From: Caldisphaera sp.
Lineage (GTDB): Archaea; Thermoproteota; Thermoprotei_A; Sulfolobales; Acidilobaceae
Direction of reading: 5' to 3'
Assembly (NCBI GenBank): GCA_049971805.1
Contig: JBMFKU010000025.1
Location: 1 to 17,302, forward strand
DNA length: 17,302 nucleotides
Below are positions 4,960-15,690 of the stretch, one piece after another. Below the pieces are notes generated by a model, which saw only the letters and a program-made list of their open reading frames with translations, was not told the DNA's origin and did not search any database. Each line of letters starts with the position of its first letter. The stretch's first letter is position 1. A program made the translations under genes and the position numbers.

Positions 4960-5045
4960 GCCGGGGTGCCCGAGCGGTCCAAGGGGACAGGCTGGAGACC
5001 TGTTGTCCCGTAAGGGACTCGCGGGTTCAAATCCCGCCCCCGGCG
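4960..5045 (+). tRNA. tRNA-Ser(GGA), intronless, CCA not encoded
   Basis: Acceptor stem GCCGGGG/CCCCGGC with G discriminator; anticodon arm ACAGG-CTGGAGA-CCTGT (GGA at 4994-4996); long variable arm GTCCC-GTAA-GGGAC; T arm GCGGG-TTCAAAT-CCCGC; followed by a TTTTT terminator-like tract. Confidence 0.98.
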
Positions 5046-5280
5046 TTTTTCTCAAAAAGGTGAAAGTTATGATAAATTTTGTTATGTTTGAAAAGTTGTA
5101 TCAATGAGAGATGAAAATAATTATATTAAGGAAATTAAAAGAAGAAAAAAGAAATTTTTAGGTATTTACATTATTTGCCTGTATTATTCCTAATAATTTT
5201 TCTGTTATTAGTTATACTTATAAAATATTAAAATGATTGGAATGGTTATTTCATTTAATAGCTATATTTTTGTATGTTTA

Positions 5281-5631
5281 TGTTATATGACAAAAGAAAA
5301 ACAAGCCTCGCCCTTTAGGGTGGGGTGGAGGTCAGCAATGCTTATAAAGTGCTCTCTAGTTTTTACAAGAGATGCAATAATTAGAGAAAATGTTGAGAAC
5401 AAAGCTGAACCGATTATTGCAAATATTATAACTAATATCACATCTATTAGATTCCAATCTATAGCTACTCCGACAAGCACAGTTAATATATATTATAATT
5501 ACTTGAGATAGTGCTCTATTACTTGCTGATAAAGCTTTTCTAAAGACTAAGCTTCCCTTAGTGTCGGGGCAACTAAAAACTTGTGAAGTATACCAAGGTC
5601 TCTCTCATATAACAGCTATACCATAAAATAT
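5281..5631 (-). pseudogene. ABC-2 type (DrrB-like) exporter permease, internal fragment with at least 3 frameshifts and an IS-derived insertion
   Basis: Joining frames on the minus strand gives IFYGIAVI/fs/DLGILHKFLVAPTLR/fs/SLVFRKALSASNRALSQVIIIY/fs/LTVLVGVAIDWNL...FSTFSLIIASLVKTREHFISI[insertion]GHIT*. This follows the ABC-2 permease pattern IFYGI..IWERDLG.LHKFLV.P..R..LV.GKAL...SL.IASLVKTRERFMGIGQ. Confidence 0.85.
5292..5335 (+). mobile_element. 44-bp non-autonomous IS200/IS605-family mini-element (single hairpin, PATE-like)
   Basis: TGAC|aaaagaaaaa-CAAG-cctcgccc-ttta-gggtgggg-tggagg-TCAG. GC-rich hairpin typical of IS605/TnpB element ends. Removing 5292-5335 restores the permease reading ...FISIG..., with no target duplication. 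Confidence 0.8.
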
Positions 5632-6053
5632 TTATATATTTTTAATATTTAATAATAAAGTAAATAAAAGTATAATAGGAAGCAAATAAGCAAAGGCTCT
5701 CTGGCCTTCTTTTATCTTAAACAAACCTTAAAAAGCTTTAATTCTATAAGAGCGTAATCTTTCTTTATTTTATCATAAACAATATTATAGATAAGGTATT
5801 TATTCTTAAGGTTAGTTAGATTCAATAATAACAAATAATATAAATGGTTATATTGAAGGAATAGTTAACTTAAGTTTAATTTAAAATCCATGTCTAATAA
5901 AAATTAAATTTTTTGTTAAAGTATAATAATTTTTAGTTTTTTATGCCAAGCCATTAAAGATATAGTTTATTTAGAGGATAGACAAATTTGAATTTAATAG
6001 CTTAGGTAATAAATTAGCAGTAGTTTCTATTTAGGTTACATAAAATTTAAGAT

Positions 6054-6068
6054 AGAAAAATTTATATA
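6054..6068 (+). promoter_or_regulatory. Putative BRE/TATA promoter of the carAB transcript
   Basis: AGAAAAA immediately followed by TTTATATA (6061-6068), a good archaeal BRE-TATA match. Confidence 0.55.
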
Positions 6069-6088
6069 GTGAAACTTTTATTGAACTA

Positions 6089-6235
6089 GTGGGCATTATA
6101 AATAGATACATAATAGGCGGAAAAACGATATTTAAGGTGTTTAATCTTATTTGTTGTTATTTAAAGAGTAAGATAATTGTTTCTTCCCAATTTAAGTTAA
6201 TTTATCAAAATAAAGGTGATGATTTTGATTTGTAA
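6089..6235 (+). CDS. Possible 48-aa leaderless uORF overlapping the carA start
   Basis: GTG...TAA open frame MGIINRYIIGGKTIFKVFNLICCYLKSKIIVSSQFKLIYQNKGDDFDL, starting about 21 nt after the TATA box. No homology recognised. Confidence 0.25.
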   Translation: MGIINRYIIGGKTIFKVFNLICCYLKSKIIVSSQFKLIYQNKGDDFDL

Positions 6236-10300: not shown

Positions 10301-10481
10301 GATAGACTTGATTATTTCAGACGGCTATATGATTAATTATGACTATAATATCAGAAGAAATGCAGCAGACTTGAATATACCTATAATTCTTAATGGTAAA
10401 TTAGCTAAAGAAATCTCTATTGCATTTAAAGAAAATTACATATCATTTTATGAAAATAAAGAATATGGAGGAGGGATTTAA
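7329..10481 (+). CDS. carB: Carbamoyl-phosphate synthase large subunit
   Basis: [90 protein letters not shown]: two ATP-grasp halves. ATG directly follows the carA stop. Confidence 0.98.
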
Positions 10482-11021
10482 TTAAGTTTTGTTTCTTAAT
10501 CTGCTCTTAGCCCAGCCAATCAAGTCGTTATTTTTCATAATTTCCTGTATGAATTCAGGCAATGGATTTATTTTGAATTGCTTATCTTCAATTTTAACTA
10601 TTCCATTATATGAATCTATCGAAATTAATAGGCTTGTGGATTTTATATATGAACCAGTAAACGATAAATTTTTAATTTTCTCATTGATGTAATCAACTAT
10701 TTCGCTTGAAGTAAATATTGGCAGTCCTATGTTTATCGCATTTCTGAAGAATATTCTTGCATAGCTTTTTGCAATTATAGCTCCAATTCCTAAGGCTTTT
10801 ATTCCGCTTGCAGCCTGTTCTCTAGAGGAACCACTACCAAAATTTTTGCCAGCAATTAAAACATCGTTAGGTTTTACTCTTTTTATAAATTCTGATTCAA
10901 CCCCTTCAAAAATATGCTTTGCAACTTCGCTAGGCTCTGTTATCATTAAATACCTTCCAGGTATTATCACATCTGTATCTACATTATCTCCCAAAACATG
11001 TACATACCCTTTTACTATCAT
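10482..11021 (-). CDS. LeuD/HacB/DmdB-family hydro-lyase small subunit
   Basis: GDNVDTDVIIPGRYL, AGKNFGSGSSREQA, AKSYARIFFRNAINIGLP. ATG 11021 follows an SD GGGTGA that overlaps the large-subunit stop. Confidence 0.92.
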   Translation of the reverse strand: MIVKGYVHVLGDNVDTDVIIPGRYLMITEPSEVAKHIFEGVESEFIKRVKPNDVLIAGKNFGSGSSREQAASGIKALGIGAIIAKSYARIFFRNAINIGLPIFTSSEIVDYINEKIKNLSFTGSYIKSTSLLISIDSYNGIVKIEDKQFKINPLPEFIQEIMKNNDLIGWAKSRLRNKT

Positions 11022-11026
11022 TTTAA

Positions 11027-12331
11027 TCACCCATAAACAAATTTAGAAACTTCATTCCATTCTGCTAATTTTCTGGGATCTGTTATTTCTCCTTTTATAG
11101 CACTAGCAGCAGCTACAAAAGCATTGCTTAAATAGACCTTTGCCTTTGAAGAGCCCATTCTTCCTTGGAAGTTCCTGTTTGTTGTTGTGATTGCAATTTC
11201 TTCATCTGCTAGCAGACCCATGTGCAATCCTGCGCAAGCACCGCAGGTTGAATGCGTAACGAAAGCACCTGCATTTAAAAAAGTCTCTATTAGTCCTTCT
11301 TTTAACGCTTCTATATAAATCGATCTTGTTGCCGCAACTACGATTAACCTAACTCCTTTTGCTATTTTTTTGCCTTTTAGGATTGAGGCTGCTTGCCTTA
11401 AGTCAGTTAATGTTCCGTTTGCGCAGTTCCCAATATACACCTGGTTAACAGGTATACCTTCAACTTCTGATATTGGAGAAATGTTACCAGGAGAATGGGG
11501 CTTTGCTATCATAGGTTCCATCTTTGAGATATCATATCTTTTAACCAAATAATAATTGGCATTAAAATCTGACTTAACCAATAATTTATCGTACTGGCTT
11601 AAAAACTTTGATTTAGCCCATAATATTATATTATCATTTGGCTGAAATATACCAGATTTAGCCCCAGCTTCTACAGACATGTTTGAAATATGCATATATT
11701 CATCTACATTAAACTTTAACAAAGCATCACCAGAAAATTCCATAGACATATAAGTAGCTCCATCAACCCCTATATCATCAATTATATTTAATACTAAATC
11801 TTTTCCAGTAACAAAAGGAGGTCTTTTTCCATTTATTTCAAAATTTATTGATTCTGGAACCAAAAACCATAGGTATCCCAAAGCCATAGAAACTCCCATA
11901 TCTGTTGCTCCAAAGCCAGTACCTAAAGAATTAAATGCTCCATAGGTTGTTGTATGAGAATCGCCTCCAATGATAAGTGATCCTGGCTTAATAAAGCCTG
12001 ATTCAGGCAATAATGTATGTTCTATTCCTTCACCTATTTCAAATATATTTTTTAATCCTTGTTTTTTAGCAAAGTCCCTTAACATTTTATTGTTTTGGGC
12101 TGCATCAATATTCGGAGGAGGAGAAAAATGATCTAAAACAATTACTATGTTTTCTTTATTTGCAACTTTTTCTGCACCGATCTTATCGAATTGTTTAATA
12201 GCAACAGGCCCACTAACATCATTTAAAAGAATAATATCTGGACTTGCGAGTACATAATTTCCAGCTTTTGCCTCATCAGAGTCCTTTGTTAAATGATTAT
12301 GAAAAATTTTTTCTGCAATTGTTTTCCCCAT
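11027..12331 (-). CDS. LeuC/HacA/DmdA-family [4Fe-4S] hydro-lyase large subunit
   Basis: KTIAEKI, LDHF, GIEH, GGDSHTTTYGA, NMSVEAGAK, three cluster Cys (GNCANG and CGAC), TTNRNFQGRMG. ATG 12331 follows the SD AGGTGA. Confidence 0.93.
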   Translation of the reverse strand: MGKTIAEKIFHNHLTKDSDEAKAGNYVLASPDIILLNDVSGPVAIKQFDKIGAEKVANKENIVIVLDHFSPPPNIDAAQNNKMLRDFAKKQGLKNIFEIGEGIEHTLLPESGFIKPGSLIIGGDSHTTTYGAFNSLGTGFGATDMGVSMALGYLWFLVPESINFEINGKRPPFVTGKDLVLNIIDDIGVDGATYMSMEFSGDALLKFNVDEYMHISNMSVEAGAKSGIFQPNDNIILWAKSKFLSQYDKLLVKSDFNANYYLVKRYDISKMEPMIAKPHSPGNISPISEVEGIPVNQVYIGNCANGTLTDLRQAASILKGKKIAKGVRLIVVAATRSIYIEALKEGLIETFLNAGAFVTHSTCGACAGLHMGLLADEEIAITTTNRNFQGRMGSSKAKVYLSNAFVAAASAIKGEITDPRKLAEWNEVSKFVYG

Positions 12332-12332
12332 C

Positions 12333-12761
12333 TTATTCACCTTCAATTACCTTTAATGCAGCTTCAGCAACTTCCATGTCTTCTGTATAATGTCCTCCGC
12401 TTACGCCAATTCCTCCAATTGTTTTTCCGTTGATTTTTATCGGAAAACCACCTCCAAATATTACAAGCCTATCAATACCTGTAGTCGCACCCGCTGCAAG
12501 TGGAGGGTCATTTTTTATGAAATCATACCATGTATGTGTCGGTAAATTATATCCTGCAGCTGTGTATGCTTTGTCTATTGCTACCTGTACGCTTAATAAT
12601 GGTGCTCCGTCCATTCTCAAAAATGCTTTTAATATACCACTCTCATCAACAATTGCAATTACAGAAGGTTTTCCAATTTCCAATGCTTTTTGCTTTGCTG
12701 TGTCTATCATCTTAAGAGAAAGCTCGTCGGTAATACTTTCCTTAACAAAGGTTTTCTTCAT
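12333..12761 (-). CDS. GlcG/HbpS-family (DUF336, heme-binding-like) protein
   Basis: IAIVDESG.L..F.RMDGA..LS..VA..KAYTA...GGFPI...G..IGGIGVSGG...EDMEVA signature. Confidence 0.92.
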   Translation of the reverse strand: MKKTFVKESITDELSLKMIDTAKQKALEIGKPSVIAIVDESGILKAFLRMDGAPLLSVQVAIDKAYTAAGYNLPTHTWYDFIKNDPPLAAGATTGIDRLVIFGGGFPIKINGKTIGGIGVSGGHYTEDMEVAEAALKVIEGE

Positions 12762-12767
12762 GGGTTT

Positions 12768-13670
12768 TCACTTCGTTACATATTTCTTTTCTAGTTGATT
12801 AATTTCTGGAAAACCCATGAAATCTATTAATTCGCTAAAATTAACCATCTTTTCAGCTAATTTATTGGATACTCCATTATTTTTTACATCAAATAAAAAT
12901 TCTTTAATAGCCTTATAAGCGGGCGATAATGATGCTAGTGGTATAATAACTAACTTATAACCAAATTTTCTGAGAGTATTTAAATCAACGAGTGGTGATT
13001 TTGCACCAGGTCCTACCCAATTAAACAATAAAGGTATGTTCTTTAATTCCTTAGGTATAGACTCTATTTGTTCCATGGTTTCAGGAGCTTCAACAAAAAT
13101 CATTTCTGCACCAGCTTTATAATATTGCTTTGCTCTTTCCAATGCCATTTCAAAACCTTCAACAGCTATTGCGTCGGTTCTTGCAATTATTAGAAAATTA
13201 GGATCTCTTTTAGCATCTTTTGCAGCTCTTATTTTCTCTACCATTTCTTCCATTGGAATCAGTTCTTTTCCTGTAGTATGACCGCATTTCTTTGGGAAGA
13301 TTTGATCCTCTATGTGCAAACCTGAGACTCCAGCATTTTCATAGTCCTGCACAGTTCTAATAACATTCAATGGATTACCGTAACCAGTGTCTGCATCGGC
13401 GATAACTGGAATATTAACGGAATTGGCAATCCTTCTTGCATTATCTAGCATTTCACTCATAGTTACTAAACCTATATCAGGATATCCTAAAATGCTTGCC
13501 GCAGTTCCAAATCCTGTCATGTAGACAGCATCAAATCCCATAAATTCTATTAGCCTAGCACTAAATGCATCATAAGCTCCAGGAGCAACTATTATTTCTT
13601 TATTTGCCATCAAGTCACGTAAATATTTTGTGGTTTTTTTAGTACGTTTTAATAAAATGTTTTCTACCAT
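12768..13670 (-). CDS. Isocitrate lyase/PEP mutase superfamily C-C lyase (PrpB / 2,3-dimethylmalate lyase-like)
   Basis: APGAYDAFSA, YMTGFG, PDIG, DADTGYG, HIEDQ, catalytic loop KKCGH (13278-13292), IIARTDA, IFVEA. ATG 13670 follows the SD GGTGGGA. Confidence 0.92.
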   Translation of the reverse strand: MVENILLKRTKKTTKYLRDLMANKEIIVAPGAYDAFSARLIEFMGFDAVYMTGFGTAASILGYPDIGLVTMSEMLDNARRIANSVNIPVIADADTGYGNPLNVIRTVQDYENAGVSGLHIEDQIFPKKCGHTTGKELIPMEEMVEKIRAAKDAKRDPNFLIIARTDAIAVEGFEMALERAKQYYKAGAEMIFVEAPETMEQIESIPKELKNIPLLFNWVGPGAKSPLVDLNTLRKFGYKLVIIPLASLSPAYKAIKEFLFDVKNNGVSNKLAEKMVNFSELIDFMGFPEINQLEKKYVTK

Positions 13671-13682
13671 AATAAATCCCAC

Positions 13683-13843
13683 CGATTATTTTATAAATGA
13701 AAACAAAGATAATATGCTTAATATAAAAGAGCTTTAATGACTGAAATAAAAGTTTAACAACTATAATTCTTATTATTATTTAATTCTGATTAGGAGGAAG
13801 TCTATTTATCTCAGTTAAACAGCTTATTAATAGGGGAAATGGA
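13683..13843. promoter_or_regulatory. Divergent promoter region between the lyase operon and the dehydrogenase
   Basis: AT-rich spacer between head-to-head genes; TTTTATAT on the minus strand at 13728-13721. Confidence 0.5.
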
Positions 13844-14707
13844 ATGAAAATTGGGTTAATAGGTTTAGGTGTTATGGGTTATAGGGTCGCAGTTAATTTG
13901 AGGAACTCTAATATGCTTGATTACATATACAATAAAACTGAATCAAAGGCGTTAGATTTTTCCAAAAAATATAATGTTGCATATTTTAAAAATCCAGAAG
14001 AGCTCGCAAAGAATTCAGATTTCATAATAACGGTTTTATCAGATGATAACGCAATATCTGGCATTGTAAAAAAGATTCTACCTTATTTAAAAAATAAAAT
14101 TTTGGTTGATTTATCAACTATTTCTCCTGCAATAAGCATTAGCTTATCTGAGCAGGTATCTTCTTATGGTGGAATAATGTTTGACGCACCCATGATGGGT
14201 ACATCTATAGATGTTGAGCAAAAAAGAGTTACAATAATAGTTGGTGGTCCGAAGGATAAGTTTGATATTGTTAGAGAAGTTTTAAGCAATACATCAAATA
14301 AAATAATTTATGCTGGAAAGAATGGCACTGGATTATATATTAAATTAGCTGGAAATATGATGTTTGCTTCGTTTATGAACGGATTGGCTGAATCCATTAG
14401 CTTTGCTGAGAAGGCTGGAATATCCAAGGAACAAATAACTGATCTTTTCTTGAATATCAGTAGTACGAGAAGTCCTGCAAGTAATTTAAAGTTACCTAAA
14501 ATGTTAAATTCAGACTTTGATATACAGTTTGCATTAAAGCACATGAGAAAAGATACTGAAATAATGGTAAGGGAAGCTCAAAATTTAAAGATTCCATTAC
14601 CTTTAACCTCTTTGGTATCAAACTTATTCAGGATTGCAGAAGGTCTAGGATTAGGAGAGCTTGATGTCTCATCAATAATAGAACTTTACAGAAAAACAAG
14701 AGAATAA
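13844..14707 (+). CDS. NAD(P)-dependent beta-hydroxyacid dehydrogenase (3-hydroxyisobutyrate DH / tartronate semialdehyde reductase family)
   Basis: Rossmann KIGLIGLGVMG, VDLSTISP, DAPMMG, catalytic Lys in GLYIKLAGN, FALKHMRKD. Confidence 0.92.
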   Translation: MKIGLIGLGVMGYRVAVNLRNSNMLDYIYNKTESKALDFSKKYNVAYFKNPEELAKNSDFIITVLSDDNAISGIVKKILPYLKNKILVDLSTISPAISISLSEQVSSYGGIMFDAPMMGTSIDVEQKRVTIIVGGPKDKFDIVREVLSNTSNKIIYAGKNGTGLYIKLAGNMMFASFMNGLAESISFAEKAGISKEQITDLFLNISSTRSPASNLKLPKMLNSDFDIQFALKHMRKDTEIMVREAQNLKIPLPLTSLVSNLFRIAEGLGLGELDVSSIIELYRKTRE

Positions 14708-14787: not shown

Positions 14788-15690
14788 ATGGTGAAATTAA
14801 TAAGTGTTTGGGGCAAGGGAGGAGTTGGGAAATCAACTATAGCATCATCTATAAGCTTGCTTTATAATAGAAAAGGATTTAATACATTGCTTTTATCTAC
14901 AGATCCAACTCCAGCTTCAACTAGAATTCTTTGCAAAAAAGAAGTTAAGACGCCAACAGAGTGCGATGGAGTAAAAATAATAGAGCTAAGTGAAGAAGAT
15001 ATTTTAAGCTTGTGGAAAAAAAGATTTGGAGATGAAGTATACAATGTAATATCATCATTTTTGCCCGTTGATTATTCAATAATAGATTATGTTTCTAGAG
15101 CCCCTGGAATTTCTGATGAGTTTACTCTATATTATCTTTACGAGCTGTTCAAGAGCAATGAGTATGATGTTATAGTATGGGATACGACTGGAGCTGGAGG
15201 TAGCCTAAATTTACTTAAAATTGAAAAGGAATTATATGAGCATATGGGCGATGCTGCTAAACTTTATTTAAAGGTAAGATCGACATTAGAAAAATTAAGG
15301 AAAGCTCAATATGAACCTCTCGAATTAATAAATTCTTGGAGAGAACTTGCTAAAAACATATTTGATATATTGTCCTCTAATGATCACGATTTAATATTGG
15401 TCTCAGAGCCCACTAGTTTATCTTTTTTCGTTACCAAAAAAATTTTAGAAGATTTGAATTTGCATAATATATATACAAGACTAATCATAATAAATAAGGT
15501 ATTTAATGAAAAAATTTGCTCTAATTGCAACTTTATTGATGAATTGGTTAAAGAAAGTAAGGATTCATTGAACTTATTTGATAGCATAAAAGATATAGAA
15601 AAAATCATAATACCATATATTGACAACCCAGAAAAAAGAATTGAAAATATCATTGATATAATAAATGAGAAAAACCAAAAAATATTCTAA
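14788..15690 (+). CDS. Single-domain ArsA/Get3-family ATPase
   Basis: GKGGVGKST P-loop, LLSTDP switch I, APG.DE, YDVIVWDT switch II, IINKV, C-terminal CxxC (CSNC, 15517-15528). Confidence 0.9.
   Translation: MVKLISVWGKGGVGKSTIASSISLLYNRKGFNTLLLSTDPTPASTRILCKKEVKTPTECDGVKIIELSEEDILSLWKKRFGDEVYNVISSFLPVDYSIIDYVSRAPGISDEFTLYYLYELFKSNEYDVIVWDTTGAGGSLNLLKIEKELYEHMGDAAKLYLKVRSTLEKLRKAQYEPLELINSWRELAKNIFDILSSNDHDLILVSEPTSLSFFVTKKILEDLNLHNIYTRLIIINKVFNEKICSNCNFIDELVKESKDSLNLFDSIKDIEKIIIPYIDNPEKRIENIIDIINEKNQKIF

Follow-up and report, generated by a model that had tools for sequence, protein, structure and literature searches.

The stretch of DNA analyzed here (the window; 17,302 nucleotides) is an entire 17.3-kb contig (C25) from a Caldisphaera sp. 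genome of 1.52 Mb and 31% G+C. The host is a thermoacidophilic archaeon, as the initial annotation had guessed. Its minus strand carries four closely spaced genes, which encode a lyase of the isocitrate lyase (ICL)/PEP mutase superfamily, a GlcG/DUF336 protein, and the large (LeuC-like) and small (LeuD-like) subunits of an iron-sulfur hydro-lyase. The initial annotation read these genes as one coupled operon that hydrates and then cleaves a substituted maleate or malate. Our analysis suggests that the genes probably form a mobile operon in which a LeuCD-type hydro-lyase acts on an alkylmaleate or alkylmalate, and a lyase resembling petal death protein (PDP) and 2,3-dimethylmalate lyase (DMML) cleaves the (2R)-hydroxy acid.

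The lyase gene (12768..13670; 300 amino acids; Pfam PEP_mutase) runs from an ATG at 13670 to a TGA at 12770-12768. It is followed by the GlcG gene (12333..12761; 142 amino acids; PF03928, HbpS-like), with its ATG at 12761 and TAA at 12335-12333; by the gene for the LeuC/HacA/DmdA-type [4Fe-4S] hydro-lyase large subunit (11027..12331; 434 amino acids; Pfam Aconitase), with its ATG at 12331 and TGA at 11029-11027; and by the gene for the LeuD/DmdB-family small subunit (10482..11021; 179 amino acids; Pfam Aconitase_C), with its ATG at 11021 and TAA at 10484-10482. A reverse-complement reading of positions 10400-13900, together with the list of open reading frames (ORFs), bears out the proposed gaps of 6, 1, and 5 nucleotides and the ribosome sites in the ends of upstream genes. 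The sequence GGTGA is found within the end of the GlcG gene (12341-12337), 5 nucleotides ahead of the LeuC start, and again at 11031-11027, where it overlaps the LeuC stop codon 5 nucleotides ahead of the LeuD start. For GlcG, the corresponding site is a weaker AGTGA (12772-12768) that shares bases with the stop codon of the lyase and precedes the start by 6 nucleotides. An AT-rich region on the minus strand (13671..13760) with TATA-like boxes, TTTATAAAA at 13697-13689 and a second at ~13729-13720, precedes the lyase gene and is a candidate promoter. A scan with sigma-70 promoter and terminator models gave counts no higher than in shuffled sequence, and the sigma-70 model is not applicable to archaea.

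The family assignments made initially hold for all four proteins when Pfam and NCBIfam models are applied. The lyase matches PEP_mutase (PF13714) with 188.6 bits and belongs to the ICL/PEP mutase superfamily, and GlcG matches PF03928 with 128.8 bits (gathering threshold, 25). LeuC passes the subfamily model NF001614 (537.5 versus 385), LeuD passes TIGR02087 (159.7 versus 108.95), and the Fe-S cluster cysteines (C303, C363, and C366) are conserved in all of the 26 sequences compared. By these models and cysteines, the pair belongs to the two-subunit hydro-lyases of the aconitase superfamily.

Movement and recurrence of the operon

In two other Caldisphaera genomes, carB and a HIBADH-like gene are nearly adjacent: the latter is 270 bp away from the 3' end of carB in the closed genome G005, and ~130 bp away in G006 (contig C5). 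The window has 3.3 kb of additional sequence at this place, namely the operon, with borders at 10482 and ~13779, and the carB stop codon adjoins that of LeuD. Therefore, the operon has been inserted, as a 3.3-kb segment, at an otherwise conserved junction of carB and the dehydrogenase gene. The sister genome G006 carries a copy of the operon on another contig (locus L009), at a genomic site different from that of the window. Positions 4625-6692 of L009 align with 13751-10488 of the window: a stretch of 132 nucleotides (13751-13620) is 86% identical and leads straight into 12423-10488, which is 90% identical. The 132 nucleotides consist of the upstream region and the first 17 lyase codons, and this segment accompanies the operon in the sister genome. 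These comparisons suggest that the four genes most likely constitute one horizontally mobile catabolic operon.

The HIBADH-like neighbor (13844-14707) was considered as a pathway member, either as a glyoxylate reductase or as an analog of Hgd. We rejected this candidate because the gene adjoins carB in relatives that lack the operon there, while the operon remnant of G006 sits elsewhere; it is also absent at the G071 locus described below.

Among 80 sampled genomes of the order, the closest large subunit (68% identical) is encoded by G071, a closed 2.7-Mb genome from another family; all other matches are at most 46% identical. G071 has the identical four-gene order, with identities of 68, 73, 68, and 61%. 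Because the same genes recur in the same order in so distant a genome, the arrangement is not a product of chance. Moreover, the operon of G071 is clearly an extra, since a canonical LeuC, an Iso_dh protein of LeuB size, isocitrate dehydrogenase (IDH), and AcnA are encoded elsewhere in that genome.

A scan of metagenomes yielded 14 loci with a LeuC at least 53% identical to that of the window, and nine of these carry a lyase ortholog (57-75% identical). The order is lyase-LeuC-LeuD, without GlcG, at two loci (L154 and L155); LeuC-LeuD-lyase-GlcG at six (L156-159, L164, and L165); and LeuC-LeuD-lyase up to the contig end at one (L163). Two other loci (L160 and L162) have a LeuA-like enzyme and a CoA-transferase in place of the lyase, and the remaining three (L161, L166, and L167) have neither partner, with L161 and L167 cut by a contig end. 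A lyase peptide scan of genome contigs returned only three relatives, at 40-41% identity. In G324, a genome from another family, an SSF transporter gene and an HTH_10 regulator gene accompany lyase-LeuC-LeuD, with no GlcG (L145). This genome (99% complete, 1.4 Mb) has no Iso_dh gene, and its sole aconitase-family gene is the lyase-linked LeuC; G324 thus appears to lack both IDH and AcnA. In Alcaligenaceae, bacterial members of the LeuC clade described below have genes for a GntR/FCD regulator, TctC receptors, and an ICL-superfamily lyase as neighbors. Thus, the conservation that the initial annotation had proposed to look for is found, with the lyase-LeuCD linkage recurring in shuffled gene orders. 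Because this linkage outlasts changes in gene order, and because transporters and regulators are encoded alongside, the genes presumably form a catabolic module for an imported acid.

The large subunits were also compared in two phylogenies, which bear out the distinction from LeuC enzymes of leucine biosynthesis that the initial annotation anticipated. An IQ-TREE quick search (LG+G4) used 87 of 135 collected large subunits, comprising every third control and all archaeal and context-bearing sequences; canonical LeuC genes from a first alignment-based scan of genome contigs served as controls. The window LeuC falls in a clade of 35 sequences (SH-aLRT 99, stem 0.31), apart from a bacterial clade of 28 sequences and an archaeal LeuC/HacA clade of 24, and it does not group with LeuB-linked large subunits. 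A FastTree analysis of 190 full-length homologs, from which duplicate loci and matches of <380 residues were removed, recovers the same clade with 67 tips and a support of 100. The LeuC of G324 lies outside this 67-tip clade.

Gene neighbors within 4 kb were counted at loci that extend ≥1.5 kb upstream and ≥2.5 kb downstream of LeuC. An ICL-superfamily lyase is encoded at 12 of the 42 evaluable clade loci and at none of the 63 evaluable loci of the other tips; the corresponding counts are 4/42 and 0/63 for GlcG, and 8/42 and 0/63 for a LeuA-like enzyme of the type described below (≥38% identical) with a CoA-transferase (≥40%). The reverse holds for leucine genes. LeuB-like neighbors number 0/42 in the clade and 37/63 elsewhere, and distant LeuA-like genes 2/42 and 39/63. 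Because the loci were collected by similarity to the window and are mutually related, these counts are a pattern and not a statistical test, which tempers the argument. By sequence and gene context, this is a separate LeuC clade without LeuB linkage, paired instead with one of two predicted C-C cleavage systems.

The second of these systems is a cluster of genes for an MFS transporter, a LeuA/homocitrate synthase-like enzyme, a class III CoA-transferase, and an HTH_10 regulator, with a cyclase gene in addition in Caldisphaera. It occupies C34:258-5351 in the host genome (contig C34) and 3-4261 of L009 in G006, where it adjoins the remnant of the operon; it is also found at L013, L015, L016, L019, L076, L160, L162, L171, and L172. 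The cluster adjoins LeuCD genes of this clade in some Thermoproteota and in Thermoplasmatota, whose members have the regulator, CoA-transferase, LeuA-like enzyme, and MFS transporter as neighbors. L015 and L016 contain one codirectional run in the order LeuC-LeuD-LeuA-like-CoA-transferase. The LeuA-like enzyme of C34 (347 amino acids) is a DRE-TIM protein without a regulatory domain that keeps the HxH metal motif and has REGLQ in place of REGEQ. Its best solved match is homocitrate synthase (101 bits), and enzymes of its type are always paired with a class III CoA-transferase. Members of the LeuA/homocitrate synthase family make or break 2-alkylmalyl-CoA from acetyl-CoA and a 2-oxo acid.

The lyase and the LeuA-like partner are not found together at any examined locus, and no LeuA-like ortholog was found in G071 or G324, the genomes with the lyase version. 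Because the two systems are predicted to break the same C2-C3 bond and do not share any of these loci, they may be alternative back ends for one hydratase product. The shared product would then be a 2-alkylmalate whose C3 bears no substituent; (R)-citramalate and D-malate are examples. The cluster was also considered as an obligatory partner of LeuCD and rejected in that role: three Caldisphaera genomes have it but no LeuCD, and it is missing from G071 and G324.

GlcG directly follows the lyase wherever it is present among the examined lyase loci (the window, G071, and six metagenome loci). Since L154, L155, and G324 do without it, GlcG is an accessory. The solved structures closest to it are those of NahX (90.7 bits), a Klebsiella OrfY-type protein, the PduO C-terminal domain, and EfgA (57.9 bits). 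EfgA is a formaldehyde sensor, and DUF336 genes sit in aldehyde-forming pathways, for example those of glycolate and propanediol, where their role is given as unknown in the accessible part of the EfgA paper (PMC8153426). Our guess is that GlcG handles an oxo or aldehyde product of the lyase.

A metagenome protein of 546 amino acids (P0029) was considered as a GlcG-LeuC fusion, and this candidate was rejected: the GlcG part lacks the first 30 residues and the C-terminal GVSGG motif. The protein is probably a frameshift or read-through artifact, and it was taken only as an instance of GlcG encoded directly upstream of LeuC.

At 14788-15690, with 2 kb separating it from GlcG, the window has a gene for a Get3/ArsA-like ATPase. 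Binding to Get-pathway proteins is noted for Ybr137w, a DUF336 protein of yeast, in the accessible part of the EfgA paper (PMC8153426). The proximity of the two genes in the window is probably a coincidence, because the operon is an insertion.

Active sites and the proposed pathway

In a structure search with a profile built from the window lyase and nine orthologs, the highest score was obtained for PDP (1zlp; 292 bits), followed by DMML of Aspergillus niger (3fa3; 272 bits), oxaloacetate acetylhydrolase (OAH; 258 bits), a chain titled carboxyvinyl-carboxyphosphonate phosphorylmutase (257 bits), and PrpB entries (249-232 bits). The window lyase and its orthologs retain the FVEA glutamate as well as the catalytic loop, PKKCGH, which is present in the window and in 10 of 10 orthologs. 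Three positions, which we take to be those of E. coli PrpB Thr212, Arg241, and Arg270 that hold the CH2-COO- arm of methylisocitrate, read NMT, FR[AS]AM, and [ST]R in the PrpB proteins of the genus and NWV, SPA, and NF in the window lyase. In the window lyase and 10 orthologs alike, the first position reads N[WL]-[VASI], the second never has Arg, and the third is always Phe, so that Thr/Arg/Arg is replaced by Val/Ala/Ser/Ile, Pro/Thr/Ser/Val/Ala, and Phe; the adjacent Trp is kept in nine of the 10 orthologs (Leu in L145). The position of the Ser that marks oxaloacetate hydrolases (FSF) is Pro in the window (IPL), as it is in DMML (FPF). The window lyase and its nearest relatives also have a GPG/GKG insertion after the NW motif. 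With PDP and DMML as the closest solved lyases, a hydrophobic pocket, and Pro rather than Ser at the OAH marker, the protein is most likely a PDP/DMML-type (2R)-alkylmalate lyase and not PrpB.

The small subunit leads to a similar expectation. Its loop, which is presumed to contact the substrate's substituent, is hydrophobic (GRYLMITEP in the window and GRFLTITDP in G071). The isopropylmalate/citramalate isomerase of Methanocaldococcus jannaschii has YLVY at this location, and the solved homoaconitase (2pkp) has YLRT; the window sequence, YLMI, is without the Arg-Thr of HacAB homoaconitases. Thus, both active sites appear to expect a small uncharged substituent, which would exclude aconitate- and homoaconitate-type acids as well as methylisocitrate.

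On the basis of these signatures and the recurrent lyase-LeuCD linkage, the hydrate-then-cleave route put forward initially seems well founded. LeuC and LeuD would form an oxygen-sensitive [4Fe-4S] hydro-lyase that adds water to a cis-2-butenedioate with a small, non-carboxylated substituent (an alkylmaleate), or alternatively interconverts 2- and 3-alkylmalates via the alkylmaleate. The product would be a (2R)-configured alkylmalate. The Mg-dependent lyase would then use the Cys of the KKCGH loop to split C2-C3, yielding a 2-oxo acid and a short monocarboxylate. GlcG would be a small-molecule-binding accessory tied to the lyase, and may bind a reactive oxo or aldehyde product.

The chemistry, the direction of the reactions, and the substrate are inferred, and the ranking that follows is rough and applies within this general scheme. 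Our first guess, to which we give somewhat less than an even chance, is the conversion of citraconate via (R)-citramalate to pyruvate and acetate. Routes from maleate via D-malate to glyoxylate and acetate, or from 3-methylmalate to glyoxylate and propionate, are rather unlikely, and both to the same degree. The cleavage of 2,3-dimethylmalate to pyruvate and propionate is the least probable of the four, and some weight is left for other acids. Of the acids suggested in the initial annotation, the alkyl type stands, with citraconate and its product (R)-citramalate favored; aconitate-like acids are disfavored by the hydrophobic sites, and dimethylmaleate has become less attractive in view of the LeuA-like/CoA-transferase partner.

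Dimethylmaleate nonetheless deserves separate consideration, because the operon could be a true equivalent of the DmdAB/Dml system, in which dimethylmaleate hydratase and 2,3-dimethylmalate lyase act in the final steps of a nicotinate-type degradation. Both of these enzyme families are likewise encoded together in one operon here, and DMML is the second-best solved match of the lyase. In addition, genes for a CoxLMS-type molybdenum hydroxylase and CoxD/CoxE-like proteins immediately precede the operon of G071 on its own strand (L049 10858-16463), and nicotinate dehydrogenase is among the enzymes of the molybdenum hydroxylase class. However, molybdenum hydroxylases are common in this archaeal order, and the neighbor in G071 may be there by chance. 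The operon's neighbors in the window are housekeeping genes, genes of the nicotinate pathway not having been searched for. Furthermore, an acetyl-CoA-releasing LeuA-like partner would fit 2-alkylmalates with an unsubstituted C3 and not 2,3-dimethylmalate. We therefore regard full equivalence with DmdAB/Dml as unlikely.

A second set of methylcitrate cycle genes is more improbable still. Under that explanation, LeuCD would act on 2-methylcitrate and 2-methyl-cis-aconitate, and the lyase would be a PrpB isoenzyme that forms pyruvate and succinate. Aconitase-family enzymes do serve in that cycle, a parallel in chemistry to which the initial annotation had pointed, and the prpB equivalog is the top NCBIfam match of the lyase. 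However, the score (295.4 bits) is below the cut-off of 354.4, and the lyase has none of the three distal-carboxylate residues found in the PrpB proteins of the genus. Its structure profile favors PDP and DMML, and the LeuD loop is hydrophobic. The host also encodes a complete set elsewhere, consisting of PrpB on C22 (410 bits versus 354), PrpD on C4, AcnA, and a citrate/2-methylcitrate synthase.

Leucine biosynthesis and remaining alternatives

LeuCD might instead be a housekeeping enzyme of leucine or lysine synthesis (an isopropylmalate isomerase or a homoaconitase) whose genes happen to lie beside that of an unrelated lyase. This is the sole LeuCD-type pair of the host genome, where the other aconitase-family gene encodes the 900-amino-acid AcnA, and relatives of the pair are automatically annotated as 3-isopropylmalate dehydratase. 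The host also encodes IlvC and one LeuA-family protein. The initial annotation had noted that no leuA, leuB, or lysine (AAA) genes are nearby, and none is found in the 17.3-kb window.

The wider gene content was examined in seven Caldisphaera genomes, including that of the window, which are 92-99% complete and of which G005 is closed. The host's single Iso_dh gene encodes an NADP-dependent IDH (559 bits versus a cut-off of 484), and each of the seven genomes has exactly one Iso_dh gene, with an ORF of 421-438 amino acids, the size of IDH. No LeuB-sized gene or homoisocitrate dehydrogenase gene was found in the seven genomes, the closed one included. AcnA is encoded in all seven, whereas a LeuC-type gene is present in two (the window's own and G006) and missing from five. 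In the order-wide search, any LeuC (E ≤ 1e-20) was detected in one of eight sampled genomes of the family besides that of the window. The host's only LeuA-family protein is the divergent one on C34, which scores 192 bits against a cut-off of 517 for isopropylmalate and homocitrate synthases, and which also occurs in three genomes of the genus without LeuCD. Thus, the LeuA and LeuB partners of a leucine pathway were not found alongside LeuCD in the host genome.

Curated models agree with the gene content. For the LEU2 equivalog (cut-off 610.65), all four LeuB-linked controls pass (672-718), whereas the window LeuC (508.8) and each of six genes without LeuB linkage (409-531) fail; the 3-isopropylmalate dehydratase equivalogs are TIGR02083 and TIGR02084 of NCBIfam. 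The window LeuC likewise fails the HacA_Meth equivalog (448.9 versus 550), and LeuD fails the leud equivalog (167 versus 245.85). Added to the absence of LeuB-like neighbors at the 42 clade loci, the LeuD loop without the homoaconitase Arg, the insertion, and the separate clade, these results support the earlier view that the operon does not serve leucine biosynthesis. The host does not present the case, raised in the initial annotation, of an only leuCD that stands beside leuA and leuB in one genome and groups with true isopropylmalate isomerases. A housekeeping role is accordingly very improbable.

Equally improbable is a pathway in which the lyase condenses glyoxylate and propionate to 3-methylmalate, and LeuCD isomerizes this compound via citraconate to citramalate for conversion to pyruvate and acetyl-CoA by the LeuA-like enzyme and CoA-transferase. 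Both modules are present in the host genome, and GlcG relatives occur in aldehyde-forming pathways, as far as the accessible part of the source goes (PMC8153426). Against this, no examined locus has both partners, G071 and G324 are without a LeuA-like ortholog, three genomes of the genus have the LeuA-like gene and no LeuCD, and the search turned up neither a malate synthase nor another source of glyoxylate. Finally, a role of the lyase in phosphonate biosynthesis as a PEP mutase was rejected, with a model score of 137 versus 319 and the lyase Cys loop present.

Several observations weigh against the proposal that LeuCD and the lyase form a pathway for alkylmaleates or alkylmalates. Neither the lyase nor the LeuA-like/CoA-transferase pair is found at 22 of the 42 evaluable clade loci, and an Iso_dh-like hit lies upstream at L200, a clade locus of insufficient length for the count. 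G006 has lost the lyase and most of GlcG through an in-frame deletion of ~1.2 kb that joins 17 lyase codons to the last ~25 GlcG codons, so that a short ORF of ~40 codons precedes an intact LeuCD behind the same upstream sequence. Because G006 keeps LeuCD alone, the coupling of lyase and hydratase is not obligatory, and the hydratase is presumably useful without this lyase. Conversely, G452 encodes a lyase ortholog (63% identical) with no LeuCD or GlcG within ~7 kb. The occurrence of the LeuA-like cluster without LeuCD in three genomes of the genus weakens the case for a shared product. The window locus has no transporter or regulator gene, and we know of no source of citraconate or another alkylmaleate for this organism. 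In addition, absences in the host are read from a genome with an estimated completeness of 96.6%, and the presence of IlvC indicates partial branched-chain amino acid synthesis, for which no LeuB step was found.

If the proposed function is correct, the operon is a testable route for the breakdown of alkylmaleates or alkylmalates, and it offers a defined context for the unexplained GlcG/DUF336 family. Annotation of its genes as 3-isopropylmalate dehydratase and methylisocitrate lyase would wrongly credit organisms in which no LeuB is found with leucine synthesis. It is possible, although we hold this only tentatively, that the clade as a whole represents an undescribed and horizontally exchanged pathway for C5-type alkylmaleates (citraconate and (R)-citramalate), with CoA-free and CoA-dependent forms and with GlcG as a dedicated partner of the lyase. 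The CoA-free form would use the PDP/DMML-like lyase, usually with GlcG, and the CoA-dependent form a class III CoA-transferase and a LeuA-like 2-alkylmalyl-CoA lyase. Both would be spread over thermoacidophilic Thermoproteota, Thermoplasmatota, and several bacterial phyla.

The remainder of the window contains housekeeping and other genes. On one side of the operon, a cluster of RNA polymerase, ribosomal protein, and EF-1α genes is followed by carAB; on the other, the HIBADH-family dehydrogenase and Get3/ArsA-like ATPase genes are accompanied by DUF996 and HIT genes. The region from 5000 to 6200 has the lowest G+C content of the contig (27%), and its sole ORF (5233-5511; 92 amino acids), located between rps10 and carA, has no Pfam match. 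An ORF of 165 amino acids on the minus strand (1907-2404) has a weak match to a bifunctional nuclease domain (29.8 bits) and opposes the otherwise codirectional rpoA''-L30e-NusA-S12-S7-EF1α-S10 cluster in which it sits. At the G071 locus, a convergent MR_MLE enolase-superfamily gene and a gene for a GlcD-like FAD oxidase lie downstream of the operon (L049 4876-7441); in Chloroflexota, locus L018 likewise has an MR_MLE gene after LeuCD.

Comparison with known systems

In agreement with the initial annotation, which knew of no characterized crenarchaeal example, no description of such an archaeal operon was found in the accessible parts of the literature searched; nor did these contain a paper that assigns genes to citraconate or (R)-citramalate catabolism. 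The Pseudomonas itaconate cluster gives no growth on (R)-citramalate or citraconate, as stated in the accessible part of PMC9875883, and the corresponding parts of PMC12290011 and PMC13491972 add no citraconate genes.

Among individual enzymes, the LeuCD of M. jannaschii is the closest comparison for the hydratase. Its small subunit (3vba) is the best solved match of the window LeuD (132.7 bits) and has a similarly hydrophobic loop. The M. jannaschii enzyme has maleate hydratase activity and hydrates maleate and citraconate-type substrates, according to the accessible part of PMC8307300. The window gene differs in having no LeuB linkage, in belonging to a different clade, and in failing the equivalog models. 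The lyase shares its fold and catalytic Cys loop with PrpB, but falls under the PrpB cut-off and is without the distal-carboxylate triad. It shares with PDP and A. niger DMML the K(K/R)CGH loop and hydrophobic residues at the positions of the PrpB Thr/Arg/Arg, as well as the Pro found in DMML, although the match is distant and the GPG/GKG insertion is on the window side.

The alternative partner resembles a pair of enzymes from Chloroflexus, which has a succinyl-CoA:D-citramalate CoA-transferase and an R-citramalyl-CoA lyase. In both cases, a class III CoA-transferase is encoded beside a DRE-TIM metallolyase. However, the archaeal enzyme is of the LeuA/homocitrate synthase type and not of the HMG-CoA lyase type, and it is encoded outside the window.

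The nearest precedent for the operon as a whole is the nicotinate fermentation of Eubacterium barkeri, in which DmdAB is the dimethylmaleate hydratase and Dml the 2,3-dimethylmalate lyase. Compared by gene content and reaction logic, the two have in common the linkage of hydratase and lyase. Both systems encode a two-subunit LeuCD-type Fe-S hydratase together with an ICL-superfamily lyase; in both, a substituted maleate would gain water and the resulting (2R)-hydroxy acid would be split between C2 and C3. The operon of the window differs in its archaeal host, in the GlcG gene that follows the lyase gene, and in having no nicotinate-pathway neighbors in the window; also, the alternative CoA-dependent partner argues for 2-alkylmalates over dimethylmalate. 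Thus, although a module composed of such a hydratase and lyase is already known, the enzyme clade, the host range, the GlcG partner, and the apparently interchangeable CoA-dependent back end would be new.

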